From assembly GCA_009602735.1 (NCBI GenBank), contig WELA01001462.1, positions 446,921-496,412 on the forward strand: 49,492 bases of DNA, in the 5' to 3' direction. Within the stretch, counting starts at the first letter, position 1, and each line of letters starts with the position of its first letter. The notes beneath the pieces were generated by a model. The model did not search any database. It worked only from the letters and a program-made list of their open reading frames with translations, and was not told the origin of the DNA. Source of the DNA: Mesotaenium endlicherianum. Its lineage: Eukaryota. Made by a program: the position numbers and the translations under genes. Below are positions 7,431 to 42,056 of the stretch, piece after piece.

Positions 7431-7467
7431 CAATTGACCTTCACTGACAAGCCTATGCCTAAGACCA

Positions 7468-9675: not shown

Positions 9676-11949
9676 AAAGGCTGCTGAAAAAGCACCGCAG
9701 AGTATTCGCTTTTACCAAGGAGGAAATTGGTAGAACCACTGCTAGTGTGTGTGAGATCACACTAACTACTGATAACCCGGTCAGACTTGAGCCGCATAAG
9801 TTCAGTCAGACCGAATGGGACTGTGTGGAGAAAACTTGCCAGGAGCTGCACAAACTCGGCATGATCGAGAAATCAACCTCCATACATGGAGCTCCTACGG
9901 TAGTAGTTGCCAAGAAGGACGAGGATGGCAATTATACAGCTACTCGTATGTGTGGGGACTACAGACGACTGAATCTTCACACGGAGCCAGACAGCTATGT
10001 GATGCCTACACCAGAGCGGATCTTTGCGATTGCTACCACTAGGAAGGTGTTCAGCATCATCGATCTACGCCAAAGCTTCAACCACATCCCTGTGAAAACA
10101 GAACATTGAGGTAAGACCGCTTTCTGGGCCCAAAGGGAACTCTGGCAATGGACGATAATGCCGTTTGGGCTGAAAAATGCCCCAGCCATCTTTGAGCGGA
10201 CTATGGATAAAGTGTGGAAGGGCCTGGATATTGCAAAACCATACATTGATGAAATAGTGGTATTCAGCAAGTCCATAGAGGAGCACCTCGAGCACTTGGA
10301 ACAAGTGTTCCAGCGCCTAGAGAAATTCCAGATGAAGCTGCATCCTGGAAACTGCAGATTCTTTGAGACACATGTGCCTTGTCGTGCGTTACGAGGTCGA
10401 GTGCGCACCATAGGCATAAGCAACACGTCATAGGCAAGCAGGCTTTGCTGCAATGGAGTCTATAATACATGTGGCGTTATAGCCAAAAAGGGAGTCAAGT
10501 TGAAAATGTTTTAATTAAGGGATGTGTACTCTCCAGAGTGAGCACCTCAAAACTGTAATCTGGTAGGAAAACAACTAATGAAGTATGGCCCAAAAGATCA
10601 CTGGAAGCACATCAGGATCTTCAGAGTAGTCCTATGGCAAGGGCTTAAGCTGTGACTTTGCTCACCACTTGTGAAGTTCTTCAAGTGACTGGAAGCCTGA
10701 AGGGCTTGCTCTTCACAAGAGAGTAACTAAGTGGTCCTGAAAACACAAGAGATAAAAGTGTAAGCTTTACTGATGATCTCTGTTACTTACACCTGGCATA
10801 ATGGACTTCTAAAAGATGTCTCTTCTAGGGACATCTCTAGTACTTATACTCCTGGAAATCCCGCAGGGTATGCGGCGGATCCAGTGCATGTAGTCACTCT
10901 AGGAGGCTCTCTTATGACCACTAATGTGTACAAGGCATGTACTAGCACTCTTATAGGCCAAGCATAACTCAAACCAATCAAAGCAAGGTGCGTAGGATAT
11001 GCTACGTGTCCCTCATTGGCCGAGCTTACCTTGGGTGATTCTACCTAGATAGCGCCTCAAAAGTGGATCTGGAAATTGAGGAAGCTTCCTCTAGGAGTAG
11101 GTGATGCAGTCACCAAGTTATAGCCTCAATGATGCATATATACTATGGAAATGCAAAGCTTATGTAGGCTAAGGGGCTCACGGATTTGTGCGCACAAAGC
11201 TTGGGGTCACGAAGAACCAACAATGTCACCTTTGGGGACATTGAGTCACAAATTGGGCCTTGGGAAAGTTTCGCTAGGGACCGGTAGGTGACGCGGACTA
11301 GATCGCACCTATCTCGCTCGATACTTGACCAAATGACGCGAAATTGGTGCCATTCGAAAGATGCTTCGACGCGCTACACGTTGGTGACTTGGAAATCTAG
11401 AAAAGGTCAACATACAAATGCGTAAAGTCAATGCAAAGTCGGCCTTCCTAGGTTGATGTTCCGCACATGTGGAGCTTGGTTTTTATATGACAACCTCGAC
11501 TCAATAAATCATGACAGCCTTACTTAGGACATGAGATTGGGAACAATGCTATGTCCCCTTAGGCTGTAAAGACTGAAGCCATTTACAAGATACTTGCACT
11601 AGCGAATGTGTCTAAGCTGAAAGCTCTGTTAGGGCTAAGCGGATACTATCGTAAATTTGTGAAGGATTATAGCAAAATTGCTAAACCCTTGACAGAACTC
11701 CTGAAAAAGGACGTACCTTTTGTGTGGACAGAAGCCCAGGAGAAGGCCTTGAACGAGCTCAAGGAGCGACTGGTAACAGCCCCAGTCTTGCGAACACCTG
11801 ACTACTCCAAGCCGTTCAATCTACACACCGACTGGAGTCGTATGGGAATTGGCGCAGTACTCACTCAGGTCGAAAGTCCTAGAGAGGAGTACGTCACTGC
11901 CTATGCCTCGCGCTCTAACAACCGAGCGGAGAGCAACTACTCGTCCTAA
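9645..11949 (+). pseudogene. pol: Reverse transcriptase and RNase H N-part, interrupted by solo repeat 10380-11516
   Basis: RMCGDYRRLN, MPFGLKNAPA, YIDE (for YIDD), ETHVP|YLGHEIG across the insertion, LGLSGYYRKFV, LHTDWS, AYASRS. Confidence 0.95.
10380..11516 (-). mobile_element. Solo A+B repeat unit of the element 2/3 family, with 4-bp TSD
   Basis: Ends TGTCGTG...CATGACA with GCCT on both sides (10376-10379, 11517-11520). Removing it restores the RT frame. 10380-10516 matches 26305-26437 and 26575-26711. 11381-11516 matches 26438-26572. Confidence 0.95.
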
Positions 11950-11964
11950 GGAGAGCTACTGGCA

Positions 11965-13788
11965 GTGATTTGGACTGTTGCACATTTCAGAGAGTATCTA
12001 TGGGGAAGACCTTTCACGTTGATCACAGTACACTCGCCATTACTCTGGCTCATGAAGAATGGAGACCTCACTGGCAAATTGGCTTGTTGGGCTCTCAAGC
12101 TCCAGGAGTACCAGATGACAGTGATACACCGAGCAGGTATACTCAACAACGACGCCGATGGACTCAGCAGGAACCCGGACCCATCCGCAGACGACAGAAC
12201 AGGAGATCAAGAAGACGAAGATCCGAGCAGCCCAGCAGAATTGGCCGCCTGCCTGGCCGAAAAGGCTAGAATGGTAGCCTCAGGAGAGGCTGAGCCTCTA
12301 TCTCTATTCAGTTCAGAGATCTGGAAAGATCAAGCGACTATGCATTGGCTGAAGACGGGAGTTCACATAGAAGGATTTTCGGCGAAAGAAAAGGACCAGG
12401 TGGGCTATCGAGCTAAAAGGTTTTGCTGGAAACGCAATAACCTATTCAAGATTGAAGACAATGGTCAGGAGAAATTAGTGCCAGAACCTACCAAAAGACA
12501 AGCTCTGGTGCAGGAAATGCGTGAGAATACTAGACACTATGGTGTCAAGAAGACATACAATCTTCTGGAGCTGTCTTATTGGTGGAGGGGCATGAAGCAG
12601 CAGTGTGAGGACATGATCAAGGCCTGTACAAGCTGCGATCGTGTTAAGGCTGGTTTAACGCAGCAACACCCACACCTGCAACCCCTGCCAATCATGGGCC
12701 TAGGCTACCGGTGGAGCTGCGATCTCGCAGGTGAGCAATCGCTGTCCAAGCGAGGTAACAAGTACATTATGGTCATGATTGAGCATTTTTCTAAGTGGAT
12801 AAAGGTGGTGCCTCTAATCGCCAAAGAAAGCTTAGGGACCGCGGAAGCGCTCCTCAATGGTGTGATTGTACGTCATGGAGCCCCAGCAGAAGTGCTGACA
12901 GACCAAGGGTCTGAGTTCCAAGGATCTTTTCAGAAACTCCTGGACAAATGCTTCATTGACCATTGCACTACGTCTAGAGGCCACCCACAAGCAGTTGGTC
13001 TGGCAGAACGGATGGTGCAAACCATTAAGTCTGCCTTACATAAATTTTGCCATGAGCATGATAAGCGTGATTGGGATCTGGCCCTGCCATGGCTGGTTAT
13101 GGGTTACAGATTTAGTAAGCAAGCTGGTTTGGCGAATTACTTGCCTTATCAGATTCTGTTTGGAAGAAGTCCAGTTGTGCCTAGCAGCATCAAGCAGGAG
13201 TTTGAGCAGGTGAAAGACCTGGACAATTACAACAACCCTGATGAACTGTTGAAGGTCATGTTGCGTTGCAAGGTGTTATTTGAGCACATGATGCCTGCTG
13301 CTCTGGACAATCTGAAAATTGCACAGAAAAGAGACACGCAGCGTTACGCAAGGACGCGAGATGGAAGCTACCGCTTGCAAATGACGCAGATCCAAGAAGG
13401 AGACTTTGTCTACCGCAAGCGCCAGACTAGGACCACCATTGACACCAGTTCAGGTCCAGTGATCTTACGCGTGAAACATGCGTTCGACAATACTGTGTTG
13501 GAACTGGAAGGTTGTGATGGAAAGACCATGAGAGATCACGTGCATAACTGTTCGCTGTGCCGTTTGCCAAACATCGACCCTACAGTTAAGACTGTGCCCG
13601 AGGAATTGGTGCCAGCCACGCCTTGTGCCAGCTGCAAAGTGCTGGATGATCAAGAAGCAATGGTAACCTGCGACAAGTGTGGTGCCCGTTGGCACACCTT
13701 CTGCATTGGTGAAGAAGAGATTATGGCAGGACAGTGGAAATGTCCTGACCGCCTTCCCAAAACTCCCAGCCACAGGGCCAGAAAATAA
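11965..13788 (+). CDS. pol: RNase H C-part, DDE integrase and C-terminal PHD finger
   Basis: ADGLSR; HYG...CTSC zinc finger; WSCDL / LTDQGSEF / GLAERMVQ catalytic core; CASC...CDKC...WHTFC...WKC PHD. Confidence 0.93.
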   Translation: MIWTVAHFREYLWGRPFTLITVHSPLLWLMKNGDLTGKLACWALKLQEYQMTVIHRAGILNNDADGLSRNPDPSADDRTGDQEDEDPSSPAELAACLAEKARMVASGEAEPLSLFSSEIWKDQATMHWLKTGVHIEGFSAKEKDQVGYRAKRFCWKRNNLFKIEDNGQEKLVPEPTKRQALVQEMRENTRHYGVKKTYNLLELSYWWRGMKQQCEDMIKACTSCDRVKAGLTQQHPHLQPLPIMGLGYRWSCDLAGEQSLSKRGNKYIMVMIEHFSKWIKVVPLIAKESLGTAEALLNGVIVRHGAPAEVLTDQGSEFQGSFQKLLDKCFIDHCTTSRGHPQAVGLAERMVQTIKSALHKFCHEHDKRDWDLALPWLVMGYRFSKQAGLANYLPYQILFGRSPVVPSSIKQEFEQVKDLDNYNNPDELLKVMLRCKVLFEHMMPAALDNLKIAQKRDTQRYARTRDGSYRLQMTQIQEGDFVYRKRQTRTTIDTSSGPVILRVKHAFDNTVLELEGCDGKTMRDHVHNCSLCRLPNIDPTVKTVPEELVPATPCASCKVLDDQEAMVTCDKCGARWHTFCIGEEEIMAGQWKCPDRLPKTPSHRARK

Positions 13789-13822
13789 AAGCTTTCAGCA
13801 GAAAGGCAGGGACGCCTCAGCT

Positions 13823-13834
13823 GAAAGGGAGGGG
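13823..13834 (+). promoter_or_regulatory. Polypurine tract of element 1
   Basis: GAAAGGGAGGGG just after the pol stop and abutting repeat B1. Confidence 0.85.
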
Positions 13835-14127
13835 TGTAAGGGAAAGTAAAGATAAGCTATCTTTTCAAAAGTTTCCGCTAAGTGTTGAATGAGAAACTGG
13901 TTGAACATGGGAAGCACTGAGTGTGGGATGCCTCACCGCATGATGCAAGTGCAGGAAGACCAGGAATGGGTCAAACCACAACCACTCTGTCACCGACACA
14001 CGTGCAAGGAACAATCAATCCGGTCGATTCCCACGTGCAGCGACGCATCGACACGTCAACAAAGTCGAAAGCACACGTGCTGAGAAGCCACGCACGCGCC
14101 AAGGGTACGACGCTGTTAGGCACGACA
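13835..14127 (+). repeat. Repeat B1 of element 1
   Basis: TGTAAGGG...CACGACA; matches 15321-15613. Confidence 0.95.
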
Positions 14128-14129
14128 GT

Positions 14130-15318
14130 TGTCGCGACTGCTATCCACTTAACGGTGCCGCACGCGCAGCGCACGTCACGGCCGCCCAGGTACGGGAAGT
14201 CAGCATTGACTCACCGACCAGAGGACTGAGGCAGCGGTCATGTTGAAGTCGTTGTCATTGTCGAAGTGGTCACGACACGTCACACCCACACCCAGGACGG
14301 GATGGGGATGTGGACCGAGTGGTCAGCCAAAAGGCTAGGGTCATGGAACCAGCAATGAGCCAGCCTAGCGAGTGCCAAGAAAGGTACTGATCAATCGGCT
14401 ATCCAAGCCAAGTACAGCAGGAATGTTGCAAAGGGCGTTGTGTGTCGCCTCGGCCAGGCTCTTAGGTGACTGGTCACGACCTGAGCGTTTATCCTAAATG
14501 CTGCCAGCCAGCCACATAGGCGTGATTGTCAGCTGGAAGGCTAAGTGGTCACGCGCAACAATCCCAATGCATGCATGCATGCCGAATGACAACTTCTAAG
14601 CTGTGTGAGAGCTGCCGGGTAAGGACGGCATGCAAGCTAAGCGCTGTGACTAAGCACTGGTACTCTCGAAAGACGACCGTGTGTGGTGCTTGTGAAAGGC
14701 ACGAGTCCTGCCTGAAGCTGCCTCATCCTTGCTCGCATTGTTGTCAAAGGAAGCTGAAGAAGAAGTTCCCAGGGCCGAGGTGCCACGCTTCTGCCGACGC
14801 TGGAAGATTTCTTAAGTGTCATAGAAAGGTTAGGCCTCAGGAGTTCCTAAGAGAGGATCTCGCTGGTGGAAAGTAGAGAGCTGCAGAATAGAATCTGTTA
14901 GGAGGTTAGTGCAGATTGAGGTCAAACACCGCAAGCGAGCGAGGGTTACTTAAAATAGTGAGTGCTGTGTTAGTCTCCAAGTTCTCAGAAGTCTCTATTG
15001 TCGAATTGCTGATAGCAAGAGTAGTACTAACAAGTAAAGCTCTCAGTGAAAGTCTGAGTAGGCCCAGCCAAGCAGTGAAGAGCTGTTAAGGCGCGGTGTT
15101 GAGCGAAGAGCTCAGACCAAGCCAGCATAGATGTGCAGTTCAGAGTTTTGTAAGCTGTGACTCGTGGAAGTTAAGTAAAAGCCTTGAAGGGCGATTTTCT
15201 CTGAACTTGACATTGCCTGTTAAGCTGCTTCGGCGTGATTTCTGCAAACTACAAACTTGTTCATTTTGTAAACCCTTAACTTGGGCGTAAGCCTGTGTGG
15301 AAGTAAGACGCTTCTGTC
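14130..15318 (+). repeat. Repeat A2 of element 1
   Basis: Matches 2423-3614; separated from B1 by 2 nt (GT). Confidence 0.95.
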
Positions 15319-15320
15319 CT

Positions 15321-15613
15321 TGTAAGGGAAATTAATGATAAGCTATCTTTTCAAAAATTTCTGCTAAGTGTAGAATGAGGAACTGGTTGAACATGGGAAG
15401 CACTGAGTGTGGGATACCTCACCGCATCATGCAAGTGCAGGAAGACCAGGAATGGGTCAAACCCGAACCAGTCTGTCACCAACACACGTGCAAGGGACGA
15501 TCAACCCGGTCGATCCCCACGTGCAGCAACGCACCGACACGTCAACCAAGTCGAAGGCACACGTGCTGAGAAGCCACGCACGCGCCAGGGGTAGAACGCT
15601 GTTAGGCACGACA
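15321..15613 (+). repeat. Repeat B2 of element 1 (right terminus)
   Basis: Matches 13835-14127; ends CACGACA. Confidence 0.95.
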
Positions 15614-15617
15614 TTGT

Positions 15618-16439
15618 CAGCTACAGGCTGCTATAGACGGGATAATGGCAGTGAGAGGCTTCCCCAATTGCGTGGGGGCCATTAATGTGTCTCACATTGA
15701 GATCCAAGTACCTAATTTGGGAGAGCCAAAAGCTTTCTGGAATACGAACCACAATTTTAGCATTTGCCTGCAAGCAGTCGTTGGTCAAAATGCCCTGTTT
15801 TACGACGTAGCAGTTGGTGCTGTTTGGTCAATGCACGACATGCGCATCCTCAAGCGCTCGTGGATAGGGAAGAAGAACATGGGTGGACGCCGGCTATTCA
15901 AGGGCCTTGCTATTATGCACAATGGTACGCGCATTCCTCCGTACATTCTCGGTGACGGAGGGTACAGCCTTGATCACTGGCTCATCTCACCATTTAGGAA
16001 CAGTATGGCACACCCTCTAACTGACGCACAAAAACGCTTCAACACGGCTGTGTCTTCCACGCGCATGGTTGTAGAGAGGGCATTTGGTATGTTAAAGTTT
16101 GTCTGGCGTATGTTTGGGGGAAGAGTTAACCACCCTTCATCACAAGGGCGCTTGGAGCGGCAGATCCGCACCTACTGTGTACTGTATAACATGCAAATAG
16201 TGCTAAATGAGGGTCCTGTAGCATATGAAGAGGGAGAAGATGGGCATAGATTGCCAGTGCTATTCGAGGTGCTAGCAGAGGATGAGGAAGCTCCGCCTGA
16301 AGACCCACATGATGTGCATGAAGGAGGCGATGACGAGGACGAGTACGAGGACGTCGATGTGGCAGTGGAGGACGAAGCTGCTGGATCAGCTATCAGGGTA
16401 GCTCTATTCGACTACCTCGGATTTAAAGCATTAGAGTAG
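15618..16439 (+). pseudogene. PIF/Harbinger DDE transposase (HARBI1-like), 5'-truncated at element 1
   Basis: GFPNCVGAINVSHI (first catalytic D appears as N), SICLQAVV, SMHDMRIL, YILGDGGY, FNTAVSSTRMVVERAFGMLK, CVLYN, acidic tail. Confidence 0.92.
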
Positions 16440-16896
16440 TACAGTAGCCCACATGGCCAGGCATTAGACCCTGCAGTGAAGTAGGCGTAGGCAGGCACTC
16501 GAGATAGCACCGTGCACAAAGTATGTATTTTTTCCAGAAAATAAATTATTTATCGTCTGCATCCCATTTGGTCCTCGACTTGCTTCTACAACCCTAATGT
16601 GCCTCCATGTGTCATCCCAACTCACGACAACATTACCTTAAACCTGCATAAGATACAGCCTTGTACTGTTTGCAAGGCCACCATCCACTGTGTGTTCACT
16701 GCAAAGGTTCTCTCGCCCCTCCATGCATCCGCTCAGCGTGCAGGTCCAGTTCCTTTTGGGAAGGTACACGTCCATTACCACCTTCAAAGTTCAACTCTGT
16801 ACGCATGCACAGGCCTCAACAATATTAATCATATATGTCTCACTTATACAACTGGATTGCATACCACTGTGTCCACTAGCTTGTAGCAGTTCAGCC

Positions 16897-18526
16897 TCAA
16901 GCCTCCTCCAACACTGCCTTGTGCAAATAGTGCCTCAAGTGCCTATTCCCCCTTACCCACTTCAAGCCTTCGGCCCCCACCAACATGTTGACGTGCTTGG
17001 TGTTGCACACGTGGACGTTGAATCCGTCCCTATCCCTGTCTGCAAGCCAAGTAGTGAACAGCTCCACTACTTGAGCACAGCCAAGCGATGTAGCATTGCA
17101 TTCTTCCTTAATCTGGTCCTCCACAAAGCTACCAAACAGCAGGGCGCGGTGTAAGGCCTTGCTAGTTCCAACCTTGTATGAATGCTCTCTCTTCTGTAGC
17201 CTCTCTAATGCACCCTACGGGATAATCCTCTGTGCTCAACAGGCGACTTTTGTCATGCTCATTACTGGCGAGCTGCCCACCTGCGGTAACGCTCAGGTTT
17301 GCCACGGCACATCCGCTGAGGTGTGACCTGCAAGCACCCAGTATGTGACCTTTGAGGCTGGTGGGAAGTCCTTGCACCTTCCGCCAGTCTTCGTCACTGC
17401 GGTCTCAATTGAACCACTTCACCAGAGCTGTTTATCCCCTCACCTGCTCTTCTGGTGTGACAATCTCTTGTGTTCCTGTCACGGCTGTTACCGTGGCGGT
17501 CTCCACGATTGTGGAGGAGGTCATAGATCGGTGCACATGTCCGGCCCCATTCTGCATCTGCCAAGCACTCTTGGGCCACTTTTTTGAAGGTTGAAATATA
17601 ATGTCTTCTTTGTTGCTGTACTTCCTCTCGTACATGTGATCCACCTGCAATGCTACCCTGTGCGCAAAACCCACAGGTATGGCATTTGCCAGAGGGAGGA
17701 GCTGCTGCCTGGGTTTGTTTATCACGCTTGTCCAACCCGTAGGAAAACCCTGCAATGTCTCAACCTAAGATACATGTAACAGTTGCAAGCAAATGCCTCG
17801 CCCTGCCTCCTCCACTACAAGCATTTTGTCGCAATTTTCGCCAGTGATAGTGGGGCAGAAGCCATAAGACTGGTGAGGATTGCTTTCATTTAAATTTGTC
17901 ACCCACACCCCTTCGTATCGTGCCCTGCCTCGAAGTCTGTGCACTGCACACCTGCACCCATTTGTGTTCTGACAGTACCCATTATGTCCTAGGATAATAT
18001 CACGTGGATCGCCAAACCTCATAGCTACGAGGATGACCCTCTCTCTGCTCCGTGGCTGACCAAAGGAGACGCATTGAACAATTCTATACGCCCAGTTGTA
18101 ACCCAAATGATGGAGTGCCGTTGTGACATCTTCGATGTAAGGCGTGCCGTCGTGTGTGTGCCTACGTAATATTCAGAGAACATTCTCTAATATGACCATG
18201 CTCACCCTCTGTTTGTCCAGCAGCCTCCACAAATGCGCTACCAAACCCGTGCGCTACAATGAGGCCGGTGCACCCATTGTGTTTGTCCGAGAGGACATGT
18301 CTTGGCATGGAAACCCCGCAAGCACTAAGTCTGTTGCTGGTGGGAATTCACTCAAACCACTCACATCCGGCAAAATCTGAATCCGTGGGTATTTCAATCT
18401 CAACACTTTGCCACACTGCACGTCGCTTTCTACCATGAGGATGACTTCGTGCCCTGCCTGCATGAATGGAATCTCAAACCCAGCAACTCCTGTAAACAAA
18501 CTACATATTTCTAGCGGTGGAGCCAT
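16897..18526 (-). pseudogene. Bacterial-type C5 cytosine DNA methyltransferase with C-terminal extension, intronless, with several in-frame stops
   Basis: One frame from ATG 18526 to 17162: I SLFTGVAGF, IV LAGFPCQDMS, VI VILENV, VII LGYNWAYRIV, VIII FGQPRSRERVILVA, IX ETLQGFPTGWT, X LANAIPV. Segment 16897-17124 is a possible frameshifted tail. Confidence 0.9.
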
Positions 18527-19448
18527 TGCGACGTTGTTAATTCTGAACAGAATAGAGTGTGTACTGAATAGCTTGTTGGAGGCTTGAGCGGTTCTCATAT
18601 CCAAATCATGGTGTGGGAAGTGCCCCTAGTCTGAGTGTGCACTTAACGACCGAAAATTGATATTTTTCAATTATAGCGCGATATATTGAAAATGAGGGGC
18701 CAAATTGTATAAGCAAGGGATTCTGGTGATCATACTTTGGGCTGATGTGGAATATGTCATGTGTTTGTGTGCTGTTTTGTGAGAAACTATGACTTCCCAA
18801 AGTATAATACTGTACTACGTACCTCCCGGATAAACAAATGTGTATCACAATAATATTATGCCTAATCTTTATGTCATCATAATATGCAAAAACACAATAG
18901 ACTGTAAGTGAGTAGTGAGCCAAAAATAGGCCGAGCAACTTCACAATTACTGTATTAAGCTACATTTCTGAAATATGCACAACGTAGCATGCCGTTCATC
19001 ACACCAATAAAATTGATTCCTAATGAGAACGACACTTATCACTGCCTGTATGTACATATAGAAACGAAAGGAAGGCAAAGAGCAGCAGCAGCAAGATGAA
19101 ATAAGCATCAAAAAGCATTATCTTGCATCACGAGCATGCATAGTGATCACCAGCATACAAGAGTTACAAAATCACAAATATACGTTTAGTACCTTTTAGA
19201 GGAGAGCTAAGGAGTACAAGGTTATGCGTGGAAACCAAGGACCATGCATAATGCGAATCGTTGCAAGTGATAGTCTGCAAGAGCGGACAAAATTCAAACG
19301 TTGCCAAACAAAAGGACAGCAGAAGATAGCAGCGCTCTCAAACAACAGACGACAACATTTTTAGGACCACAATGTGGCATGAATAAAAGGCCAAACATAT
19401 TGGGACTATTTAGGGAGCAACAAAACTAAATTACAAAAAATATTTGAC

Positions 19449-20144
19449 ATGCTTCAACAAGACAAGGCAATAAATATCAAATTTGACGAAATTAGCGCCA
19501 GTTTTTACCCCATGGTACGAATACGGGCTTTCCGTCTGGAGTCGTTTGTCGATGACTACTACTTTGCTGAAGCACACGGATGCAATTCACCAATAATCAT
19601 CGAAGTAACAATTATGCAAACCATGGCTGCCCTGCAGTCTCCCTCATGTCCACATCCAGTGTCCACCTTCCACGACTTAGAATATGTTTTTGAAATAGCC
19701 CATACTCTGTTAGAGAACGGAAAACTAGCAATAGAATCACAATTACAAACTCTCCAAGATGAGATCCTTAACTTGGAGATGGATGTGGGCGAGGTAGCAC
19801 TCACCGCCTGTCGTGCGAAAAAGGCGCGTCACGCGCTCGAGTTAGAAACTTGTTTGCAGCAGAAAAGCGCCGACCTCATTGAACGAGCTACGGCAGTGAG
19901 GAATGAAATGGCTAGTGAAACGCTCATTCATGCTGTGCTTCTACACAGCAGTCCTCACGACTCTCTTAATGCTCTCATGCTTAATACTCACAAATTCATG
20001 GCTGACAACCTGCAAGAGCATTGCAGCGCTGCTTTTGAGGCGCTCCTCTATGGGGACACATGTTCAAGTGCAGCAACCAAGTTGAGGCGTTATATTAAAG
20101 CGAGTGCAGCGCTGCTCAACCTCCCTTTGCCCCAGGATTTTTAA
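19449..20144 (+). CDS. Hypothetical helical/coiled-coil protein; true start possibly ATG ~19613
   Basis: 231-codon open frame rich in L/A/E, preceded by AT-rich non-coding DNA. No motif recognised. Confidence 0.45.
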   Translation: MLQQDKAINIKFDEISASFYPMVRIRAFRLESFVDDYYFAEAHGCNSPIIIEVTIMQTMAALQSPSCPHPVSTFHDLEYVFEIAHTLLENGKLAIESQLQTLQDEILNLEMDVGEVALTACRAKKARHALELETCLQQKSADLIERATAVRNEMASETLIHAVLLHSSPHDSLNALMLNTHKFMADNLQEHCSAAFEALLYGDTCSSAATKLRRYIKASAALLNLPLPQDF

Positions 20145-21010
20145 AACAGCACGTGCAACCTGCTGAAGGTACAAGGCCTGGTTCTGTGACCTCTTCATTC
20201 ATGCACCTACTACTTTGCATTTTCATTCACGCACCCTCTACTTTGCATCCTCAGAGTTCAAATTGCACGGGTGAATGGCCCTTGTATTAATATCCTGCGC
20301 ATCTTGCAATATGTCTGTCTCTTGCCGTTGCGTCATGATTGTGGCCTGTGTGGCCTTGTTTGAGCTGTAGCCCTGGGGACTAGCTAATCAAGTAACTGTA
20401 GTTGTCGCCAGGTGCCAGTGGCTGTTTGTGAAGGGAATTTACTCAAATAGCAACGCTCCAGTTTGCACACAAGTGTTGCAGGGCTGGAGGAGCATGTTGC
20501 AGGTCTGGAGGAGCTCGTCACTGCTCGCATTCAACGTAGATGAGCTTGTGCTACTATTTCATAAATTAGAATATATGGTTCCCTGTACAGTAGTGGTGCA
20601 TGTGGTCATTGGTCGGTGGACAATGGTGCAAGATTCGTAGATCACAAGTTTAGGATGTTGTCGTGTATCTTAGGGAGCCTCCATGGCTGTATGTGACCTT
20701 CTCCATGTGTTGGTGTTTACTTGCGGCAACACAGTCATACAGCTGCATGTTTGCAATTGCATACTCCGCAAACAGCTCACATACGTGCATTTTATTTCTG
20801 CATGTAGCATGATATATGTAATGCTTGCTGAGCCAAATAAAATTTGGAATAAAACTACACATTTGTATATGCCTACTCTACAAGTGCAACAGTACCACTA
20901 GAGCAAGGTAATAATTGCACATGACTAAGAATAGCGATGCTATGTAAACTCAACAACCTTGCAATTGCATTGCCTTTTGTCTGGTGTCCTCAAATAACAA
21001 CAGCGCATCT

Positions 21011-22580
21011 TCATTGCTGAGCCTGTAGCAGCCAATGCCTACAACATATTGGGCATGGCTTTTGAACCAAATCAAGGATCCCATGCAAGTGCAGCAAAAC
21101 GACACCGACATATATGCAGGTAAAGTAGAAAGCCCATCGATAAGCTGTAGGAGCTGACAGTGTCCGAACTGTAAATGCGGCAGTCCCAAGGGCGCATTTT
21201 TTTACATGCCATATGGGCTCTTCAGGAAGATTGTCCTCCAAAGGGGAGCGAAGACTGGCCCCATCTAGCCAATACAAGTGCAGCGTGCTTCATGAGGACA
21301 TTCAGGGCAGGGAAAACCACGCCGTCATACACACTCAGGTGCAAGATGCGCAAATTTGGAGTGAAGACAAAATAGTCTCGCTGCAGATGCTTGTTCACAA
21401 TGAGGTCCAATTCCTCTAGCGCAGGCATAAACGTCCTGGTGTGCGACAGCGTACCACCCATCGCCAACTTGCGCATGATGGCGCACAACGCGCTTGGTAG
21501 GGGACGCATGGAAGTCACATCAGGATCCCCAACCCTCCTTGTGTATGGGACCACAGATCCCACGTCGAGCGACGTCAGCTGGGTCATTCTGGACACGATG
21601 TCCATTCCCTGCATGCCCGCTTCTTTCAACTGCAAAACAAGTGCACACACAAAGCGTGCTTTGAGAAACAGCCCCGTTGCACAACCACTTCACACGCTAC
21701 GTGTAAGCTGTGAGTACAATGCTGCACTGCTTCAGGTGAGGATAAAACACACCTTTACGAGAGGCATGCGTGGCTCCTTCAGGGTGGTCATGCTGCTGAG
21801 GGACGTCACGACCTCTAGTGTTAAAGAGGGTCCAGATTTGACTTTCAGGTACACAAATGATGTCACCTGTGAGAGCTAGGCGGGTAGCGGGACCTTCGAA
21901 CCATTAGTGCAGACGCGTAGCTCCTTGAAGGAAGGCATAGAAGCAATGGACTTGCTAATGGGAAAGACATCACCTTCACCCCCGTCTGAAGACCTCAAGT
22001 ACATGCGGCGGCAGTCCCATGCCAACTTCTTCAGCTGCACCTGCGCTGTCAGGTCCATGTCTTCCAGCGCTTGCCTGAACCTCTGGCTGGCGTGGAAGTT
22101 ACCATCGCAGCCCATCGTGGTGACCTCTAGGTGCAGTTCTTCCATGCTACTACGCGTGGCCAGAAAGGGAGCAAGTGTTAGAAGAAGCTTGTCATCGCCA
22201 GTGAGATTAAGCCTGAAGGAAGTCATGCGCGGAAACTGTGTGCCTAGGGCAAGGAAGAACTCAGCCAAATCCGGTTCGTTCCCAACGACACCTATGGTCA
22301 CGTGAGTGACATTTGGCAACGTGCACAGCTCCGCAAGTGCACTCTGAATATCCCTCGCACGGTAAAAGAACAACACAACTCGCTTACAGGAGGCTTTCAG
22401 CAGCTGCCTCCAGCTACCACACACGTGGCACAGGTAAGCGAAAGTCGTCACGTCTACTACCCGTGGACGATCACCATGAGGATGGCGCCTTTTGGGATCA
22501 AAGGCCATGTGCAGAATGCGCTCCACAAGCTCATCCCCCAAGTCGCTAAATGAAGTCCTTCCTGCATTGCGGGCAGCACC
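21011..22580 (-). pseudogene. F-box plus LRR-like protein
   Basis: SFSDLGDELVERIL...LCHVCGSWRQL F-box pattern. LRR-like units LPNVTHVTI, FPRMTSFRL, SMEELHL, QLTSLDV, ALEELDL, PNLRILHL. Stop at 21876, probable intron ~21630-21755 and a frameshift ~21270. Confidence 0.7.
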
Positions 22581-23236
22581 TGTACAAAACGTAAGGACGT
22601 ACACAATGTGTGGCGTACACAACATTGCGCAGTCAGGTTAGCTATTGAGGGTGTGGGACAGGTACAGGAGCCAGTAGGTACAAGACCTGCACCGAAGCAC
22701 AACTGTGCAGCACCAGAACGCGTATAGGCAACACAAAACGATATCCACGACAGGCAAATAGAGCAATGCACGTAGAACAAGGAATTCAATAACTTGACAC
22801 ATGGACACAACGATGCATGAAGATTTTTTGTTTTTTAAGCATGGGACTCGAAATAATGGCACATAGCAAGGTGCCCTCTTCTAAAATGCTACTCACTTAG
22901 CCCTACGCAACCTACATGCATGCGAGGATGTCATCTGCTGTACCCATCAGAGCCAACAGCAAAGTAAAACATGCAGGCTCTGATAAGTAAGCTGGTGCAG
23001 GCAAACTTTAAAGCCTACGGCTCTGCTATGTCGTGCGGCGGAACTTTCCCGCATGTTGCAGAGCGGTTAGAAGGCGACTGCGGGCGACCAGCAGCGGACC
23101 CCTCGGGAGAGGGCACTGAGGCTGTAGGTGTAGTCACAGCGGCCTGAATGTTTGCCATCCTGTTGAATGCAGCAACCATGCCATTGTCCACATTTCATTG
23201 CACTGCTAATTTCTTTGACAGCATTTTCAACTGCAA

Positions 23237-24976
23237 TTATTGCTGTATCTGCCACTGCTGCATTTTCATTGCATGTTGCTCTTGGATGAACTGGAGCCTA
23301 TTCATGTTTGCAGCCTTCTGGTCAGCATCTCGTCCTCTCTGAATGACGAGCTGCCCCTGAAAGGTCGATAGCATGCACTCATGACGCTTTCCACCTACCT
23401 CAGCAGCTGCATTTAGGTCTGCCTGTGCAGCTGACTCTGCAAGGTAACGTTTCCTACGCCTCCCTATGGCAGGTGCCTTGCCCCCAGTGTTACCTGGAGA
23501 TGAAGTAATTGGGGGCGACGTCGGACGTGGCGGCGTAGGACGCGTTGGCGTGATAGCAGGACGGGGTTGCACGTGAGGGGGACTGTGAAGTGGCGAGGAT
23601 GTACCCGCTGGCCGAGGTGCTGCAGCTGCAGTTGCTGTTGCAGAGGGTGGGAGAGGAACGTCATGCGCAGCAACACCCTCATCGGCCTCGTCAGGGCTGA
23701 AGCACTCAACGTCGTCCACCTCTTCATACGCATTGGCGGCATCCGCATTATGAGCGGGAGTCGGCGACCCCTACACCGTGCTGCTGGTGCATCTGCGTGG
23801 GGGAGCGTCCACAGGTTTTGCCTCCTGAGCTGCAGAGGATGACTGCGGCATACTAGATGTGCCTGCTTCACCTGCCTCTCAAGTAGCGGCTGCTGCAGCC
23901 CTGCAAGCTGCAGCTCTCTGGCGGCGTTGCACCTCCATGAGAGCGTTGTGGTCATGCTCGCCCGGGTTGTGGTAAGCCAGTCGCCACCTCGCTGCTAGCG
24001 TCCAATGCTCGTATACTTCTCGTCTTGGGCAGTGCCCATCGGCCCACAGGCCATGGTTTTTTCTGTACGTGGCACCTAGCTCCCAAAACGAGGACTGTCC
24101 AGTGTGCGGATTGTACTCGTAGTCCCATATGGTTTTCAGGGCTTTGTGCAATTTGCTCCAGTACTTGTTGATTCCTGACCCTGACCTCTCAATGCCAGTG
24201 AGTGCCTTGAGCTCCAATGCTAAGTTATCCCACATGGCTGCTGTCGTCACGAACTTGGAGTGGACATCTTTGGTGCTTGCTTGTTTTGTTTTCAACATAG
24301 CCTCGTAGCAATCACAGAGATGACTCTTCTCAGCATCACTCCAATGGATGTTCCTCGCAGGAGCAACATCACCCCTGCCTACTCCACGCGTAATTGTGGA
24401 GGGCTGAGCAGGAGCAACAACCTGCAAGGTGCTGGCGTTAACCTGCGCGCAAAGCACATAAATATCGTGAGATTTTAACGGTAGGCAGTAGTGAAGGTTA
24501 GCACAACTCGCAGGAAGCATGATTTGAAGCAGTAGTCTGAGTTGAGAGCCACTGACCTCATTATTGTCGACGTGTTGATGCATAGTAAACAGCAATACCT
24601 CCACCCCTCTGCCAGGTGGCGCAGCCATCGTGTGCAAGTGTTGTAGGCCATTGAAATTGAATGAAAAGAGCGTGGGTGCCTGCTGTCCGAGAAGTCCTCC
24701 AGCGGTAGTAACAGGCGGATTCCAAGCCATAGCAGGGGCCTGACAATCGAGGAGAGGAACAATTGGGGTTGCACCCTGGGCTAGGTGGGCACCGGGCTGA
24801 GAGGATAGGGACGCGACATACCGTGCAGGGTGCTGAAAGTTGTGTGGGCTGAATGATCCCTGCAGCGCCAAGGTTGGCAACGAACTTGGACTTGCAGTAT
24901 AAGATATGGGAGCAGCTGATCCTGAACGAAAATTGTCAGGTGGTTGCCCTCTTGGGGCCCTACCCGGTGGATCCAT
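23237..24976 (-). pseudogene. Harbinger-associated Myb/SANT-like (trihelix) DNA-binding protein
   Basis: HWSDAEKSHL...AMWDNLALEL...RSGSGINKYWSKL three-Trp pattern. Probable in-frame intron 24443-24598 (GT..CAG, 156 nt). Same frame continues through stops to 23237 with a Pro-rich linker and Q-rich helical end. Confidence 0.8.
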
Positions 24977-25565
24977 GGCTGGTAATGGTTAAAGTGGACG
25001 CAGCACGGAAATTTATAGGCTTTCATGGAAGGGTACGCCCTCACCATTGTTCCGAAGTTGCCCCTAGGTGTTAAGTGAGATGCCTTTTCTGGGCTGTGTG
25101 TGAAAAAAAAGATAGGAGGTGCTTCATGAAGACAGCCGGTAGAAAGAGCCGGCAAGAAGCCCTTTATTTTTACTCTACTCGCTTTTGACGAGTTAAGATA
25201 TTTTCGTCACAATTTGTGAATGCGATAACGGGAGGGCGCTTCACGCATTGATTTTTGTGTCTGTTTCTGTCAGAACAAAATCTGTGTGGTGCCCGAACCA
25301 CGAGGAAAAGCGACCAATGTCGTTGGTGGTCTGCTGGGAGGCCGTGGACATAATAATACATCGATGTATTGATGCAAGTTTTCCGGCTCCAATCACTGTG
25401 GACAGTACATGGACTAGCGAAGTAGGGAGGTCGAGGCGCGCGCGAGAGAACGTTCGCAAGTCGTTGAAGTGCTCAACAGCTGGCCACCTTGGTTGTGCTA
25501 GATTCTTGACATAACATGTAGATTGTGTCACGTTTTCTTGTTTTATAGCACAATCTAAACAATTA

Positions 25566-25621
25566 CTGCGGTGTACTGCGGTGGATTGCGGTGGATCGCG
25601 ATGGCATGCGAGTGGATTGCG
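25566..25621 (+). repeat. Short ~10-bp tandem repeats (TGCGGTGGAT-like), possibly subterminal repeats
   Basis: ctgcggtgta ctgcggtgga ttgcggtgga tcgcgatggc atgcgagtgga ttgcg. Confidence 0.55.
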
Positions 25622-26304
25622 TGCTGCATAGCTTGTCCTTGTGTGCAATATCTCGTATGCATGCAAAGATGTTGCTGACGTCTTTGTCCATCACGGACTT
25701 CCGCACTCAGCCGTCGATGAAAATATCTCACTTCAAAGTCGGTTGCCGCGGTCTCCGCGGACGGGAATTACCAGGAGCTTTTTACAGAAAGCTGCTAATG
25801 GGTTATCACTGTAAGCGAAGGTGGGACTCGGGAGTCTCGTAGCCTTGTAATCCTTACTTCTAGATCCCAGGGTCCCAACCAGATATCATACATGTGCCAT
25901 TGCGCAATGTTCATAGTATGTATAGGTAGATATAGACAAATGTACTGACCTGCATATACAGATAATTCTGAGGTAAACACTAATTTGATTAACACCACGG
26001 ACTGCTAAGTGGCTGCAAAATAAAAACACTTTATTTTGTGCGAGAAGGTCGTTCCAGTGATGTCTTCGCAACCTCTACATATGCTGGGAATGGTTGAGAG
26101 GCAGTTGGTAATTTTTACATCCTTTTGAAGGGGTGTTGTGGGTTGGCCTACGCAATTTCATCAAGTCAAGGTCACAAAAACAGTGGAGAACCCAACTTCG
26201 ATCGTGAAAGCCTGACTTTCACCTTCAAAAGACGTGGAAACTTCTTTCTAAGACTATCCGCTTTTAATGGTGTGCAATCGTTTCGCGTACATGTACATAG
26301 CGGT

Positions 26305-26711
26305 TGTCGTGTGTTACGAGGTCGGGTGCGCCACACAGGTACAAGCAACACATCATAAGCAAGCAGGCTTTGCTGCAATAAAGTCTATAATACATGCGGC
26401 TTTATAGCCGAAAAGGGAGTCAAGTCTCAAATGTTTTTTGGTGACTTGGAAATCTAGAAAAGGTCAACATATAGATGCGTAAGGTAAATGCAAAGTCGGT
26501 CTTCCGAGGTTGACGGTTCGCACAAGTTAAGCTTGATTTTGTACGTCAACCCCGACTCAATAAATCATGACAGCTGTCGTGCGTTACGAGGTCGGGTGCG
26601 CCACATAGGTACAAGCAACACCTCATAAGCAAGCAGGTTTTGCTGCAATAAAGTCTATAATACATGCGGCTTTATAGCCAAAAAGGGAGTCAAGTCTCAA
26701 ATGATTTAATT
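26305..26711 (-). repeat. 3' terminal repeats of element 2: B2 (26305-26437), deleted A remnant (26438-26572), GC, B1 (26575-26711)
   Basis: Direct repeat of ~135 bp starting TGTCGTG. Junction CATGACA-GC-TGTCGTG. All parts match solo 10380-11516. Confidence 0.93.
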
Positions 26712-26724
26712 CCCCCCCCAGCTC

Positions 26725-28200
26725 TCAGCCTCTAGCTGATGAGCTGTGTACGCTGCCTAAGGCTAGAGCGAAGCAGTCAGTGCAGAACCAGTCGCCAGCT
26801 GGCACACGAGCCAGCGGCGGGTCGAGGCAGCCGATGTGGAAGCCGAGGTTGCAGCTGTCGCAGAGCAGCATCTTGGCCTTTTGGCCAGAACTGTGGCAGA
26901 TCTGACACGCCCTGTCTTTGGGCGGGCGCGCGTCGCGGGGACGAATCTGCATGTCAAAGTTAGGAAGGTGGCATGGTCCACAATTCTTTGTGTGGTCCTT
27001 GTGAAGACGGCCATCTGCGCCTTCCAGCTCCAGGACTCCTGACGCCAAGATGCGCTTGACGCGCAGGATGACCGATGAGCTGCTGATGTCGAGGGTGTTC
27101 TTTGTCTGGCGTCGCAGGTACACGAAGTCACCTGCGGAAAACCGCAACACCCGCGGACGATAGGCTCCTCCACGAGTCATGGCATACCTTAGCGTATCGC
27201 AATGCTGTGCGATGCTGAGGTTAGCCATGGCCATGGGCATCAGGCGCTGAAAGAGCTGCGCACGCTGCCTAATAAGAGCACTCCACGTCTCGGGGCTGTC
27301 CAAGTCCAAGACGATTTTGGCCACGGTCCTGCCTGCGGCGGGCAGGACTGGCTAGCGGCCGTAGAGAAGGAAGCAGGGAGAGTGAGAGGCCAAGGAGGCC
27401 TGCTTACTGAACCTGTACCCCATAGCCAACCACGGGAGGGCATCATCCCAGTGGGTGCTGTCGTGGGCAAGGCAGTACTTCCGCAACCCAAGCTTGACGG
27501 TCTACACCATACGCTCTGCAAGGTTGTCAGCCTGTGGATGATCGCGGGAGGTGGTGCGGTGGTCGATCATAGAGTGCTCCAGTAGCTTCTGAAAGCTGCC
27601 CTGGAAGTCCTTGCCTTGGTCGGTCAGTACCTCAGCGCAGCCGCCAAAACGGCTAAGGACCTGTTCAAGAAAGGCCTGAGCGATCCCCTCACTTGCCTTG
27701 CTGGGTAAAGGCACAAGTTCGATCCACTTAGACATGTGCTCAATCATCACCAAGACGTAGAGGTTGCCTCGGCAAGACTTGGGCAGCTCCCCAGCTAAGT
27801 CGAGCGACTACCTGTAGAACAGCCCCTGAATAAGAAGGGGGCTGAGAGCGACGGTGCGAGCTGTGAAGCTCGAGCGCACACGATCGCAGAGAGTGCAGCT
27901 GCTGACGACGTCGGCGACGACCTTAGTCATGCCTGACCACCAGTACTCAGCCTGAAGAAGGTTGAGCGTGCCTTTGACACCGAAGTGTCCCAGTGCCTCG
28001 TGTACCCGGCGTACCAGCTGACTGCGTATAGCAGGCTCAGGGACCACCAGGACGGACCCGTCCGCCATCAGTCGGCGCATGCATCCCTCCATGTAGACGA
28101 AGTCGCGGCTGAGCTGGAGGATGCGATCGCGCTCCCTCGTGGTAATGCCTGAGACCATCTCCCTAGAGGTAACGTACTGCAGCACTGGGGCGTCCTCCCA
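26725..28200 (-). pseudogene. pol: DDE integrase plus PHD finger (element 2)
   Basis: HEALGHFG...CTLC; LTDQGKDF; LAERMV; PHD CQICH...CDSC...FHIGC...WFCTDC. Stops at 27808 and 27502. Confidence 0.93.
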
Positions 28201-28221
28201 AACATCATCGGGCCACCGGTG

Positions 28222-29829
28222 CTAGCTGTCCTGCTCTTTTGCTGCTGCCAATGCCAAGCGCCGCATGTTGACAGTTACCATGGCCATGCTTGTGAGCCCT
28301 GCGGGCCGCACCTCGCTGTCCACGGTGAAGGCCAAGAATGCTGCCGCGTGCCACGCCACAGGCTCGTCCTCATTATGGCGTGCCACATTCAGGTCCCTCG
28401 ACGATGGAAGAGGGTTACGGCTGAGGCCGTCGGCGTCCATGTTAGTGGACCCAGGGCGGTGGTGCACGTCAAAGGTGTACTCCTGCAGAATGAGCGCCCA
28501 TTGTGCGTACTTGCCCGTCAGGCGTTCCGACGTCATGAGCCACTTGAGTGGCTGATGGTCGGTGACCAGGCGAAAGTGGGTGCCGTAGAGGTAGTGCTTG
28601 AAGTGCACAATTGCCCATATTGCCGCCAGGCACTCCCCCTTGTAAGAGCCGTAGTTGCTCTCGGCGCGGTTGTTGCTGCGGCTAGCGTAGGCCACCACGT
28701 GCTCGAAGCCCTCGTGCTCCGATACCAACACCGCGCCCAGTCTTGCCTGCGACCAGTCGGTGTGGAGGATGAAGGGCTTCTTGTAGTCGGGCCACCGCAG
28801 CACCGGTGCGCTCACCAACAGCTCCTTGAGCTTGTCAAACGCCGCCTGCTGCTCTCGCCCCCACACATAAGCAACACCCTTCCGCAACAAGTCGTTGAGC
28901 GGCTTGGCCAGCTCGCTGAACCCTGGCACGAAGCGCCGATAGTAGTTGGCGATGCCAAGGAAGGCCCTCAGCTGCCAGAGATCCGTGGGAGGCAAAATGC
29001 CCGTGATGGCTGAGATCTTGGCCAGCTGCGGCGCCAGACCGGTCAAAGAGAGCAGATGCCCGAGGTACTCCACCTCTCGAGTCCCAAACGTGCATTTGCC
29101 GGGATGGCACTTGAGCCCCGCGGCCTCCAAGCGCTCCAACACAGCAGTGATGTGGGCCACGTGCTCCTCAAACGTCTCACTGAAAACGAGCACGTCATCG
29201 ATGTAGCACCGAGCAAAGGGTAGCCCTGCCAGCCCCTTATCCATGACCCTCTGAAATGTGGCCGGCGCGTTCTTCAACCCAAAAGGCATCACCACCCATT
29301 CGTAGAGGCGCTGTGCCCCCCAGAATGTCGTCTTACGTTGATCCTTCTCGGCGATGGGAATCTGGTTGAAGCCCTGGCGCAGGACCAGCACTGAGAACCA
29401 AGTGCAGGTGCCAATGTCATCGAAGATCTCGTCTGGCGTCGGCATAGGGTACCTGTCTTGCTCAGTGACCTCGTTCAGCCGACGATAGTAACCGCACATC
29501 CTCTTCTCGGACTCGTTCCCCGCGGCATCCTTCTTGGCTGGCATGACCGTGGGCGCGGCGTAGCGAGATGACGACTCCTTCATGAGCCGACTGTCCTCCA
29601 GCTTGCCTGTCTTTGCGTCGATTAGACCATCCTCGAAGTGACTGTAATGATACCTCTTGAGGAAGATAGGCTCCTTGGACGTGAGAGGAATCCGCATGGG
29701 ATCCCCTTTGTAGCGCCCAAGGTCGTGCATGCCGCTGGCGAAGCTGACGCTGGGTCTCACATCCAGCAGTGTCGTCAACTGGGCCACCTGGGCGTCAGCG
29801 AGAGTCCCCCCCAGCTTCCATGTAGACAA
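28222..29829 (-). CDS. pol: Reverse transcriptase and RNase H (element 2)
   Basis: 535-aa ORF: MPFGLKNAPATFQR, YIDD, YLGH, LHTDWS, AYASRS, TDHQPL, ADGLSR. Confidence 0.97.
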   Translation of the reverse strand: MSTWKLGGTLADAQVAQLTTLLDVRPSVSFASGMHDLGRYKGDPMRIPLTSKEPIFLKRYHYSHFEDGLIDAKTGKLEDSRLMKESSSRYAAPTVMPAKKDAAGNESEKRMCGYYRRLNEVTEQDRYPMPTPDEIFDDIGTCTWFSVLVLRQGFNQIPIAEKDQRKTTFWGAQRLYEWVVMPFGLKNAPATFQRVMDKGLAGLPFARCYIDDVLVFSETFEEHVAHITAVLERLEAAGLKCHPGKCTFGTREVEYLGHLLSLTGLAPQLAKISAITGILPPTDLWQLRAFLGIANYYRRFVPGFSELAKPLNDLLRKGVAYVWGREQQAAFDKLKELLVSAPVLRWPDYKKPFILHTDWSQARLGAVLVSEHEGFEHVVAYASRSNNRAESNYGSYKGECLAAIWAIVHFKHYLYGTHFRLVTDHQPLKWLMTSERLTGKYAQWALILQEYTFDVHHRPGSTNMDADGLSRNPLPSSRDLNVARHNEDEPVAWHAAAFLAFTVDSEVRPAGLTSMAMVTVNMRRLALAAAKEQDS

Positions 29830-30233
29830 AGCTGGTGAGGGCGTCTGTACTGCAGCCGGCTCCTCCTGCCTTGCTGCTGGCGCCAGCGGTGGCGCGACAG
29901 GTGTCGCCTGCCCTGCAGCTATCTGTTCTCTGCTTGGGATGGATGCCTCCTCTTGTGCAGCTGCTGCCAGCTGTACTACCCCGCTTGCCTAAGGTCCTGC
30001 CTGAGGTCGCGAGCGAGGAAAAAGAAATGATGACCGGAACTCCCTCGGTCGCTGTGAGGCCTCCTCTCTCCTGCGTCCCCCCTCTAGCAAATCAGGAGCA
30101 TCACGGGCTAGCGGCGGGGACTGAGGGCGTGCGCGGGCCTGCGGGGCAGTCCCCTCGCGCTAAGAATGCCACGCGGTGCCGGGCGGGGCCTGACCGTCAC
30201 CGTTAGGGTAGTCTCGTCCATGGCATCAGGAGG

Positions 30234-33900: not shown

Positions 33901-34079
33901 AACAAACGGGGTAGGCGCGGCGCCTCCTCCGTTCGTCGTCCCTGGTCTGGCCCGTCGCGATTCTGTGACGCCGCGGGCCGGCCGGCTGGTGCCACGAGCG
34001 TGTGCTCGCGGCCAGCGCGACCGACCGCAGGGCGGCCGGCGAGAGGCTGCGTGCGTGCGTGCGCAGGCCAAAATGGCAG

Positions 34080-34305
34080 CTGCTGGCGCAGTCGCAAGGC
34101 CCGACGCAAGGCCTATTGCATGACCTGCCGCAGGGCCTGTCGTGCTGCCTGTCGCAGAGCCTCCTCCAAGGCCTGGCAGGCAGCCTGCCGGAAGGCCTGC
34201 CGCCAAGCCTGTCGTGCGGCCTGCCGCTGAGCCTGTCGCGCGACCTGCCGCAGAGCCTCCTCCAAGGCCTGTCGCGCAGCCTGTCGTATGACCTGCCACA
34301 ATCCC
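34080..34305. repeat. Degenerate 12-bp tandem repeat (GCCTGYCGNNNN)
   Basis: Minus strand translates as RQAA-RQAL-EEAL-RQVA-RQAQ-RQAA-RQAW-RQAF. Confidence 0.8.
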
Positions 34306-42055: not shown

Positions 42056-42056
42056 G

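Follow-up and report, generated by a model that had tools for sequence, protein, structure and literature searches.

In the 49,492-nucleotide stretch of Mesotaenium endlicherianum DNA analyzed here (the window; contig WELA01001462.1), five genes lie between 15.6 and 25.0 kb: a PIF/Harbinger-type DDE transposase, a C5 cytosine methyltransferase (MTase), an open reading frame termed ORF3, a leucine-rich-repeat (LRR)-like gene and a Myb/SANT-like gene. All five are recovered by six-frame translation at the places given in an original prediction, which was made from the sequence alone. The MTase sits between the two convergent Harbinger genes (transposase and Myb/SANT-like), and the block is likely to be a Harbinger element that has taken up a DNA methyltransferase of algal origin; the ends of the element are unproven and its copy in the window is dead. 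The features are as follows.

15616..16439, plus strand: PIF/Harbinger DDE transposase, N-terminal part missing (Pfam DDE_Tnp_4, E 5.8e-22)
16897..17214, minus strand: open frame of 105 codons that follows the MTase in a different reading frame (open reading frame list; diverged-contig matches)
17201..18526, minus strand: C5 cytosine methyltransferase, ChloroDNMT-like, without PWWP, five stops, 3' end uncertain (PF00145, trees, model)
19383..20144, plus strand: ORF3, product class unassigned (open frame only; one diverged contig skips it)
21222..22637, minus strand: LRR-like gene, F-box-like start by eye only, likely two introns (LRR_14, E 0.023; splice-like sites)
23100..24976, minus strand: Myb/SANT-like second Harbinger ORF, convergent with the transposase (two sub-cut-off Pfam matches)
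25244..25776, no strand: non-coding stretch common to several copies, likely right subterminal region (contig depth)
15321..15618, plus strand: repeat B of the adjoining Gypsy-Dnmt3 retroelement, outside the Harbinger unit (92% to 13835-14133; abuts the cut transposase)

Harbinger genes and accompanying frames

The transposase match to DDE_Tnp_4 (HARBI1 type) lies above the Pfam cut-off. Its closest relatives, from 14 matches in total, are four M. endlicherianum proteins (46-57%), followed by fern proteins (34%), a pattern pointing to a likely charophyte host. The first catalytic Asp is Asn in the window copy and Asp in a second copy. The gene begins mid-protein, where repeat B of the Gypsy-Dnmt3 retroelement interrupts it at about 15616; this truncation and the frame behind the MTase (the tail frame) were overlooked in the original prediction. 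The region 1-2421, beyond the retroelement, was considered as the site of the 5' half and rejected, as tblastn with 13 transposase relatives gave no match there at E up to 5. The missing half is thus absent from 1-2421, indicating that the Harbinger unit has lost its left end. A short translated likeness is seen by eye across both retroelement junctions.

The names proposed for the transposase and the MTase stand, whereas Myb/SANT is matched only below the cut-off (Myb_DNA-bind_5, E 0.017; Myb_DNA-bind_4, E 0.024), without a PDB match. The Myb/SANT-like gene has four stops and one likely in-frame intron near 24555-24445, and pieces of diverged contigs match it around 24025-24161. The F-box/LRR name is likewise weaker than proposed: no Pfam F-box model and no PDB structure is matched, and LRR_14 is reached only below its cut-off, at the E-value listed above. 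The three stops of the LRR-like gene fall in intron-like stretches, as judged by eye from GT..AG borders and pyrimidine tracts. ORF3 spans 253 codons from stop to stop, or 231 from the first ATG, and has no Pfam or Atlas match. The LRR-like gene is proposed to be a second cargo gene that has been held long, and ORF3 to be optional. In the gap between these two genes (20254-20556), the plus strand is partly coiled-coil-like, with no Pfam match in the one frame scanned.

The genes were described as similarly decayed. This is true in part: the MTase has five in-frame stops, the Myb/SANT-like gene four and the LRR-like gene three, and the transposase and ORF3 have none. Pfam scans of the block frames recognize no endonuclease partner among the genes neighboring the MTase. 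CpG depletion is uninformative, being no stronger in the Harbinger unit (0.59-0.81) than in the nearby Gypsy elements (0.55-0.91).

Methyltransferase core and tail

The MTase core is read in one frame from 18526 to 17201 on the minus strand, with no frameshift and with in-frame stops at codons 91, 118, 254, 365 and 374. It is complete (about 440 aa), matches PF00145 at E 7e-30, and gives an AlphaFold model (predicted local distance difference test score, pLDDT, 77.5) that is matched structurally by M.HaeIII/M.HhaI at E 1e-14. The catalytic motifs FPC, ENV and RxR are retained; motif I is FTGVAG, and motif X is ANA instead of GNA. As previously proposed, the enzyme is distinct from the Dnmt3-like domains of the Gypsy elements in the window (best tblastn E 0.07), and it is a stand-alone gene.

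No PWWP domain is found in the MTase frame or the tail frame by Pfam scans. The tail frame (17214 to 16897) is matched by contigs of about 80% identity at 16979-17060 and 17152-17178, and is likely to encode a C-terminal domain of the MTase, joined by a splice or a frameshift; a candidate GT..AG pair is available for the joining. It has no Pfam or PDB match, its Atlas matches are unnamed and below the recognition threshold, and its model has a pLDDT of 52. The tail frame weakly resembles the tail of a metagenome protein, P0310, in a region chosen by eye (16 of 2000 shuffles score as high).

P0310 belongs to a cluster of three near-identical metagenome proteins (P0155, P0309 and P0310) on contigs of 2.8-9.5 kb. 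Their ChloroDNMT-like core lacks PWWP and has altered motifs, and their tail bears a weak resemblance to the window tail frame, so that the overall plan is the same. The cluster may represent an element of this kind from a different alga.

No RNA run is among those listed as containing the block. In three RNA runs with the same species label, of which 6, 13 and 24% was read, no read falls on the MTase; the runs come from other samples, which are not known to carry the element. Reads placed on the block number 76, 11 and 43, of which 74, 11 and 43 are partial; nearly all lie at an acidic stretch (16328-16377) and have unrelated ends. These runs say little about expression and are not counted as evidence.

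Origin of the methyltransferase

The motifs LGYNWAYRIV, FGQPRSRERV, GDPRDII, LQGFPTGWT and WPKSAW were taken in the original prediction as signs of a bacterial Dcm or restriction-modification enzyme. They are all present in the window MTase, but they are not diagnostic, since the same motifs are common to a bacterial family and to green-algal PWWP-bearing DNA methyltransferases (DNMTs), and the window MTase groups with the algal enzymes. The bacterial impression arises because a length-limited search lists prokaryotes: a word-based search restricted to 243-774 aa gives 568 matches, and among the 120 listed the named ones are all prokaryotic, and the top matches are at about 30% identity. When phmmer is run without length restriction against 1.84 billion representatives, longer proteins rank first among the best 150 of 14331 matches, many of them with PWWP; the PWWP-bearing top matches among these 150 include proteins from clusters with Cymbomonas, Ostreococcus, Trebouxia and Bathycoccus. 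Further genera come from a profile search, namely Micractinium, Coccomyxa, Chlorella, Dunaliella, Haematococcus and Klebsormidium. A database label ties the algal matches to BsuMI YdiP; no target site is claimed from this label.

ChloroDNMT is a DNMT lineage of chlorophytes and charophytes, often with PWWP (PMC12344493). From the PWWP domain and the list of species, i.e., by description and not by sequences, the algal clade of the present analysis appears to be ChloroDNMT. One copy is recorded in Mesotaenium, three in Spirogloea and one in Klebsormidium; Spirogloea muscicola and Micromonas each have three copies and most listed algae have one (PMC12344493, Table S1). The extra copies in S. muscicola and Micromonas could be transposon-borne.

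The phylogeny proposed as a check on a bacterial origin gives an algal placement in three trees, which were built on chosen subsets of matches. In a quick tree of 68 rows, the window MTase falls within the algal group with a support of 97 in the Shimodaira-Hasegawa-like approximate likelihood-ratio test (SH-aLRT), paired with the long-branch P0310. In a careful tree of 39 rows (LG+G4, P0310 left out), it falls within the algal group at 95/92. In a quick tree of 38 rows, the bacteria form a clade without the window MTase at a support of 99. Unnamed rows of the trees are labeled by architecture and motifs, which is partly circular, and a recount was therefore restricted to named proteins. In this recount, a Cys-rich insert after DPR is present in all 18 scorable named algae (20 tried, two without the anchor motif) and in none of 10 named bacteria, whereas the motif YWxEG is present in none of the 18 algae and in all 10 bacteria; the window MTase has the insert and lacks YWxEG. 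This criterion was derived in the present analysis and does not come from PMC12344493. The window MTase also scores higher with an algal than with a bacterial profile (258 vs 222 bits; 216 vs 189 bits with named sequences only).

The alternative that the MTase was taken directly from a bacterium or phage, from a family sister to the algal DNMTs, would explain its intronless core and its lack of PWWP. The bacterial PF00145/YWxEG family (Acinetobacter, Nostoc, Rhizobium) is about 30% identical to the window MTase and shares WAYR, DPR and WPxxAW with it; identities to bacterial enzymes reach 30-33%, and the C-terminal WPxxAW region is common to both. In the approximately unbiased (AU) test, neither a position of the MTase next to the bacteria as a whole (p 0.314) nor one just within them (p 0.149) is rejected. 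Several further results weigh against an algal origin: the exclusively prokaryotic names in the length-limited search mentioned above; the long branch of the MTase (1.6-1.7); the support of only 55 for the algal group in the 38-row tree, which like the 68-row tree is a quick one; and the level named-only profile scores for residues 173-335 (24.2 algal vs 25.0 bacterial).

Nevertheless, a direct bacterial origin is very unlikely. The bacterial YWxEG family lacks the Cys-rich insert and forms a clade excluding the window MTase in all three trees, and the AU test rejects the MTase as sister to the two best bacterial-type matches (p 0.0006). No viral carrier of the algal type is found: none of 216 MTase-like frames at 160 viral loci in alignment scans scores >20 bits better with the algal profile, and none of these loci carries a Harbinger transposase. 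Viral scans with the window MTase or P0310 as single query give no loci; metagenome scans give 27 stretches for the window MTase and 119 for P0310, with none confirmed in either case; and a bacterial genome scan gives one locus.

Thus, a host-type ChloroDNMT is the likely ancestor of the MTase, and the ChloroDNMT family in turn has a bacterial sister family. The possible horizontal bacterial origin put forward in the original prediction finds no support in the trees, the Cys-rich insert or the absence of YWxEG. The window MTase shares with ChloroDNMT the catalytic core, the Cys-rich insert and a tree position among green-algal enzymes, and differs from it in lacking PWWP or Tudor, in its different tail and long branch, and in its location inside a repeated element (PMC12344493). 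Its identity to the closest host gene found in a charophyte, that of Klebsormidium, is only about 33-36%. By its sequence, and given the missing PWWP, it is a derivative of ChloroDNMT and not a full-length member.

Repeated copies and linkage of the genes

Copies of the block were assessed through public DNA contigs and reads; four DNA runs from one sample contain about 80% of the words of the block. In run X1, 29 of 30 bins over 15605-25957 exceed the last bin (depth 69.1) by a factor of 1.6-4.1. The last bin corresponds to one difference-free contig, which starts at 25747 in run X1 and at the same position in runs X2 and X4. A single-copy syntenic host gene, the case named beforehand as speaking against capture, is not what is seen. 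As summed contig depth is not a copy number, the weight is carried by separate contigs, which match the block at about 97% and about 80%.

The near copy matches the transposase at 97% identity, with 18 differences over 608 bases, and extends upstream by another 1059 bases, where the window has the retroelement. For this copy, 40 differences are listed, with 613 more beyond them, and 24 are translated, in the transposase, MTase and Myb frames. Among the differences listed, it has sense codons at MTase stops 118 and 254, restoring the ENVPG of the family, and three transposase changes (N to D, Y to C and Y to H) that revert to the letters of the relatives.

The diverged contigs (about 80%) link the genes of the block. 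A contig of 1808 bases and depth 215.6, also present in run X4, joins transposase segments 15752-15878 and 16037-16201 to tail segments 16979-17060 and 17152-17178. A second contig (depth 51.6) links the tail to the core (17127 to 17589) on 38 letters. A third (depth 65.9) connects three MTase pieces, with joints from 17719 to 18216 and from 18276 to 18345, and then passes from 18509 to 21388, in the LRR-like gene, on 116 letters, skipping ORF3.

At the right side, depth in the non-coding stretch 25244-25776 is about three to four times that of the flank (bins of 281.9 and 152.3 vs 69.1) and then falls to one, so that single-copy DNA starts at or soon after 25777. This drop is as would be expected of a transposon end. 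The right-end shared region contains tandem GCGGTG-like repeats (25560-25615) and a CCGCGG direct/palindromic pair (25746-25760); subterminal binding sites are expected in such a place.

The window unit has the DDE_Tnp_4 transposase in common with PIF/Harbinger elements; its second ORF resembles their Myb/SANT protein only below the Pfam cut-off; repeated copies are present and the ends are not established. The search for further copies suggested in the original prediction thus yields a repeated block and linked diverged contigs, but neither terminal inverted repeats (TIRs) nor a target-site duplication (TSD). No inverted repeat of >10 bases lies between 1-2430 and 25500-26350 and none is among the 25 longest listed; no TSD is found; and the left end is absent from the window. 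These observations count against a mobile unit with a working MTase, as do several limits of the contig data: no single diverged contig among those matched to the block spans transposase to catalytic core; the tail-core link consists of 38 letters and two MTase joints of 30-61 letters, at an 80% likeness setting that carries a repeat warning; all DNA runs with the block are from one sample, and their summed depth is no copy number; and MTase stops 91, 365 and 374 fall outside the listed near-copy differences. In a run from another sample (X14), only two Myb-region pieces are matched, at depth 3.

The block might instead be a Harbinger remnant beside host genes or foreign DNA in a segmental duplication or repeat-rich region, the MTase being a mere neighbor. 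The missing TIR, TSD and left end, the sub-cut-off Myb match and the single DNA sample would all fit this explanation, and the 97% copy might represent a duplication or, were the organism diploid, an allele. Vegetative cells of charophytes are haploid, and haploidy fits the data better because the flank depth equals the depth of copy-specific contigs. A chance neighborhood is quite unlikely, given the position of the MTase between convergent Harbinger genes, the link between transposase and MTase tail frame on a contig of about 80% identity with three times the depth of the flank, and the end of sharing just past the Myb promoter, at a point where a rise in depth is followed by a fall to one. 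The MTase therefore likely belongs to a repeated Harbinger-type unit as cargo, and capture of an MTase by a DNA transposon, as originally proposed, is likely in light of the repeated block and the linked diverged contigs.

Neighboring elements in the window

The retroelement that cuts the transposase (2421-15618) has an A-coding-B-A-B layout, in which A 2421-3614 corresponds to 14128-15318 and B 13835-14133 to 15321-15618. It encodes Gypsy domains and a Dnmt3-like C5-MTase domain in a polyprotein and is present in very high copy. Its layout and domains match those of KnitGypsy-Dnmt3 (PMC5890265), though likely in another charophyte. The A repeats are 96.5% identical and the B repeats 92%; this inequality suggests that the Gypsy unit may be recombinant, which could possibly explain the lost left end of the Harbinger unit.

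At about 26700-34900 on the minus strand, a second Gypsy of a different family is GC-rich (64%); its integrase is followed by a PHD-like finger, and near 31250-30300 it has its own Dnmt3-like domain, which is frameshifted. Another high-copy repeat family is found at 10379-11518, 26304-26711 and 37664-38941, partly inverted (10521-11471 vs 38798-37844, 77%); one copy is inserted in the first Gypsy, and another lies immediately to the right of the Harbinger unit. A further long-terminal-repeat (LTR) element occupies 35866-49492, with LTRs at about 41325-42055 and 49104 to the end, a third LTR copy at 35866-36585, and assembly gaps at 43305-44006 and 45038-45181.

Relation to known transposon-borne enzymes

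The statement that Harbingers normally encode only the transposase and the Myb protein is overstated. HarbingerS of oomycetes carries a SET histone methyltransferase and PHISTA of rust fungi carries TET/JBP (PMC12730594), providing a precedent for Harbingers with chromatin- or DNA-modifying enzymes. The window unit differs from both in its cargo (a C5 cytosine methyltransferase, an LRR-like gene and ORF3) and its charophyte host. PHISTA also has no Myb/SANT protein.

KnitGypsy-Dnmt3, SymbioDIRS-Dnmt3 and SymbioLINE-Dnmt are algal retrotransposons with DNMTs, for which self-methylation is proposed (PMC5890265). These and the window unit share transposon-borne, intronless algal cytosine methyltransferases from host-type families; they are retrotransposons with Dnmt3 or orphan enzymes, whereas the window unit is a cut-and-paste transposon with a ChloroDNMT-like enzyme as a separate gene. 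Mariner-1_OLpv, a DDE DNA transposon in a virus genome, encodes a C5 DNA methylase and a restriction-type endonuclease (PMC3627910). The window unit is likewise a DDE DNA transposon with a C5 DNA methylase, without a recognized endonuclease. Some members of the bacterial YWxEG family are fused to Vsr, which is compatible with DNA being what the wider family acts on.

In the literature covered, outside which lie Repbase Reports and most subscription journals, neither a Harbinger with a C5-MTase nor a ChloroDNMT borne by a transposon was found. What the papers covered describe are DNMTs in retrotransposons and in one viral Mariner, and SET and TET enzymes in Harbingers.

Possible role of the methyltransferase

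The reading favored here, to which we assign a probability of roughly 0.6, sees in the block the decayed remains, truncated on the left, of one copy of a repeated Harbinger-type transposon. This transposon likely acquired the catalytic part of a ChloroDNMT-like enzyme from its host, and likely carried it as a working gene. The transposase and the Myb/SANT protein of Harbingers act jointly in cut-and-paste transposition, and they would have moved this unit in the same way. An ancestor would have taken up the MTase core without PWWP and without an intron in the core, perhaps via complementary DNA (cDNA), and a small new tail domain would have taken the place of PWWP. The MTase gene would then have been retained while the element families diverged. 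In the absence of a host chromatin reader, the enzyme would most likely have methylated the element's own DNA or its insertion sites, altering silencing by the host. This last step is the most tentative one and is more likely wrong than right.

The main rival concerning role is passenger capture, in which the Harbinger took up host fragments (MTase core, LRR gene and ORF3) like Pack elements, without benefit. Five stops interrupt the MTase of the window copy and ORF3 is skipped in one diverged contig, as passengers might be, and transfer of TET/JBP between transposons is described as frequent but passive (PMC12730594). Yet the MTase core is complete, its catalytic motifs are kept despite the low identity to the Klebsormidium gene, and contigs of about 80% still match pieces of the MTase and the tail, so that retention may have been long. 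Passenger capture is thus unlikely, and carriage of the MTase as a working gene is preferred.

In its fullest form, the proposal is that a charophyte Harbinger lineage captured a host ChloroDNMT and swapped its PWWP for a DNA-binding tail, that the enzyme has been under selection across diverged families, including a young one with several near-identical copies, and that the element methylates itself beside an MTase-armed Gypsy. This combination is possible, with the odds somewhat against it.

Biological implications

Transposons are silenced mainly through the mark of cytosine methylation. If intact copies exist, a Harbinger of this kind would be able to write the very mark that normally silences such elements. 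The account offered for retrotransposon DNMTs, methylation of fresh cDNA, would not apply to it, since cut-and-paste elements in the nucleus do not pass through cDNA; the reason for which transposons carry DNMTs could thereby be tested in a second setting. Intact copies would moreover supply a ChloroDNMT that is small, free of PWWP and simple to assay, and no report of activity was found for the ChloroDNMT family in the papers covered. Enzymes of this kind look bacterial in length-limited searches, which gives no ground for calling horizontal transfer. If capture, selection and self-methylation all hold true, the same alga would host two independent classes of methyltransferase-armed transposons side by side.

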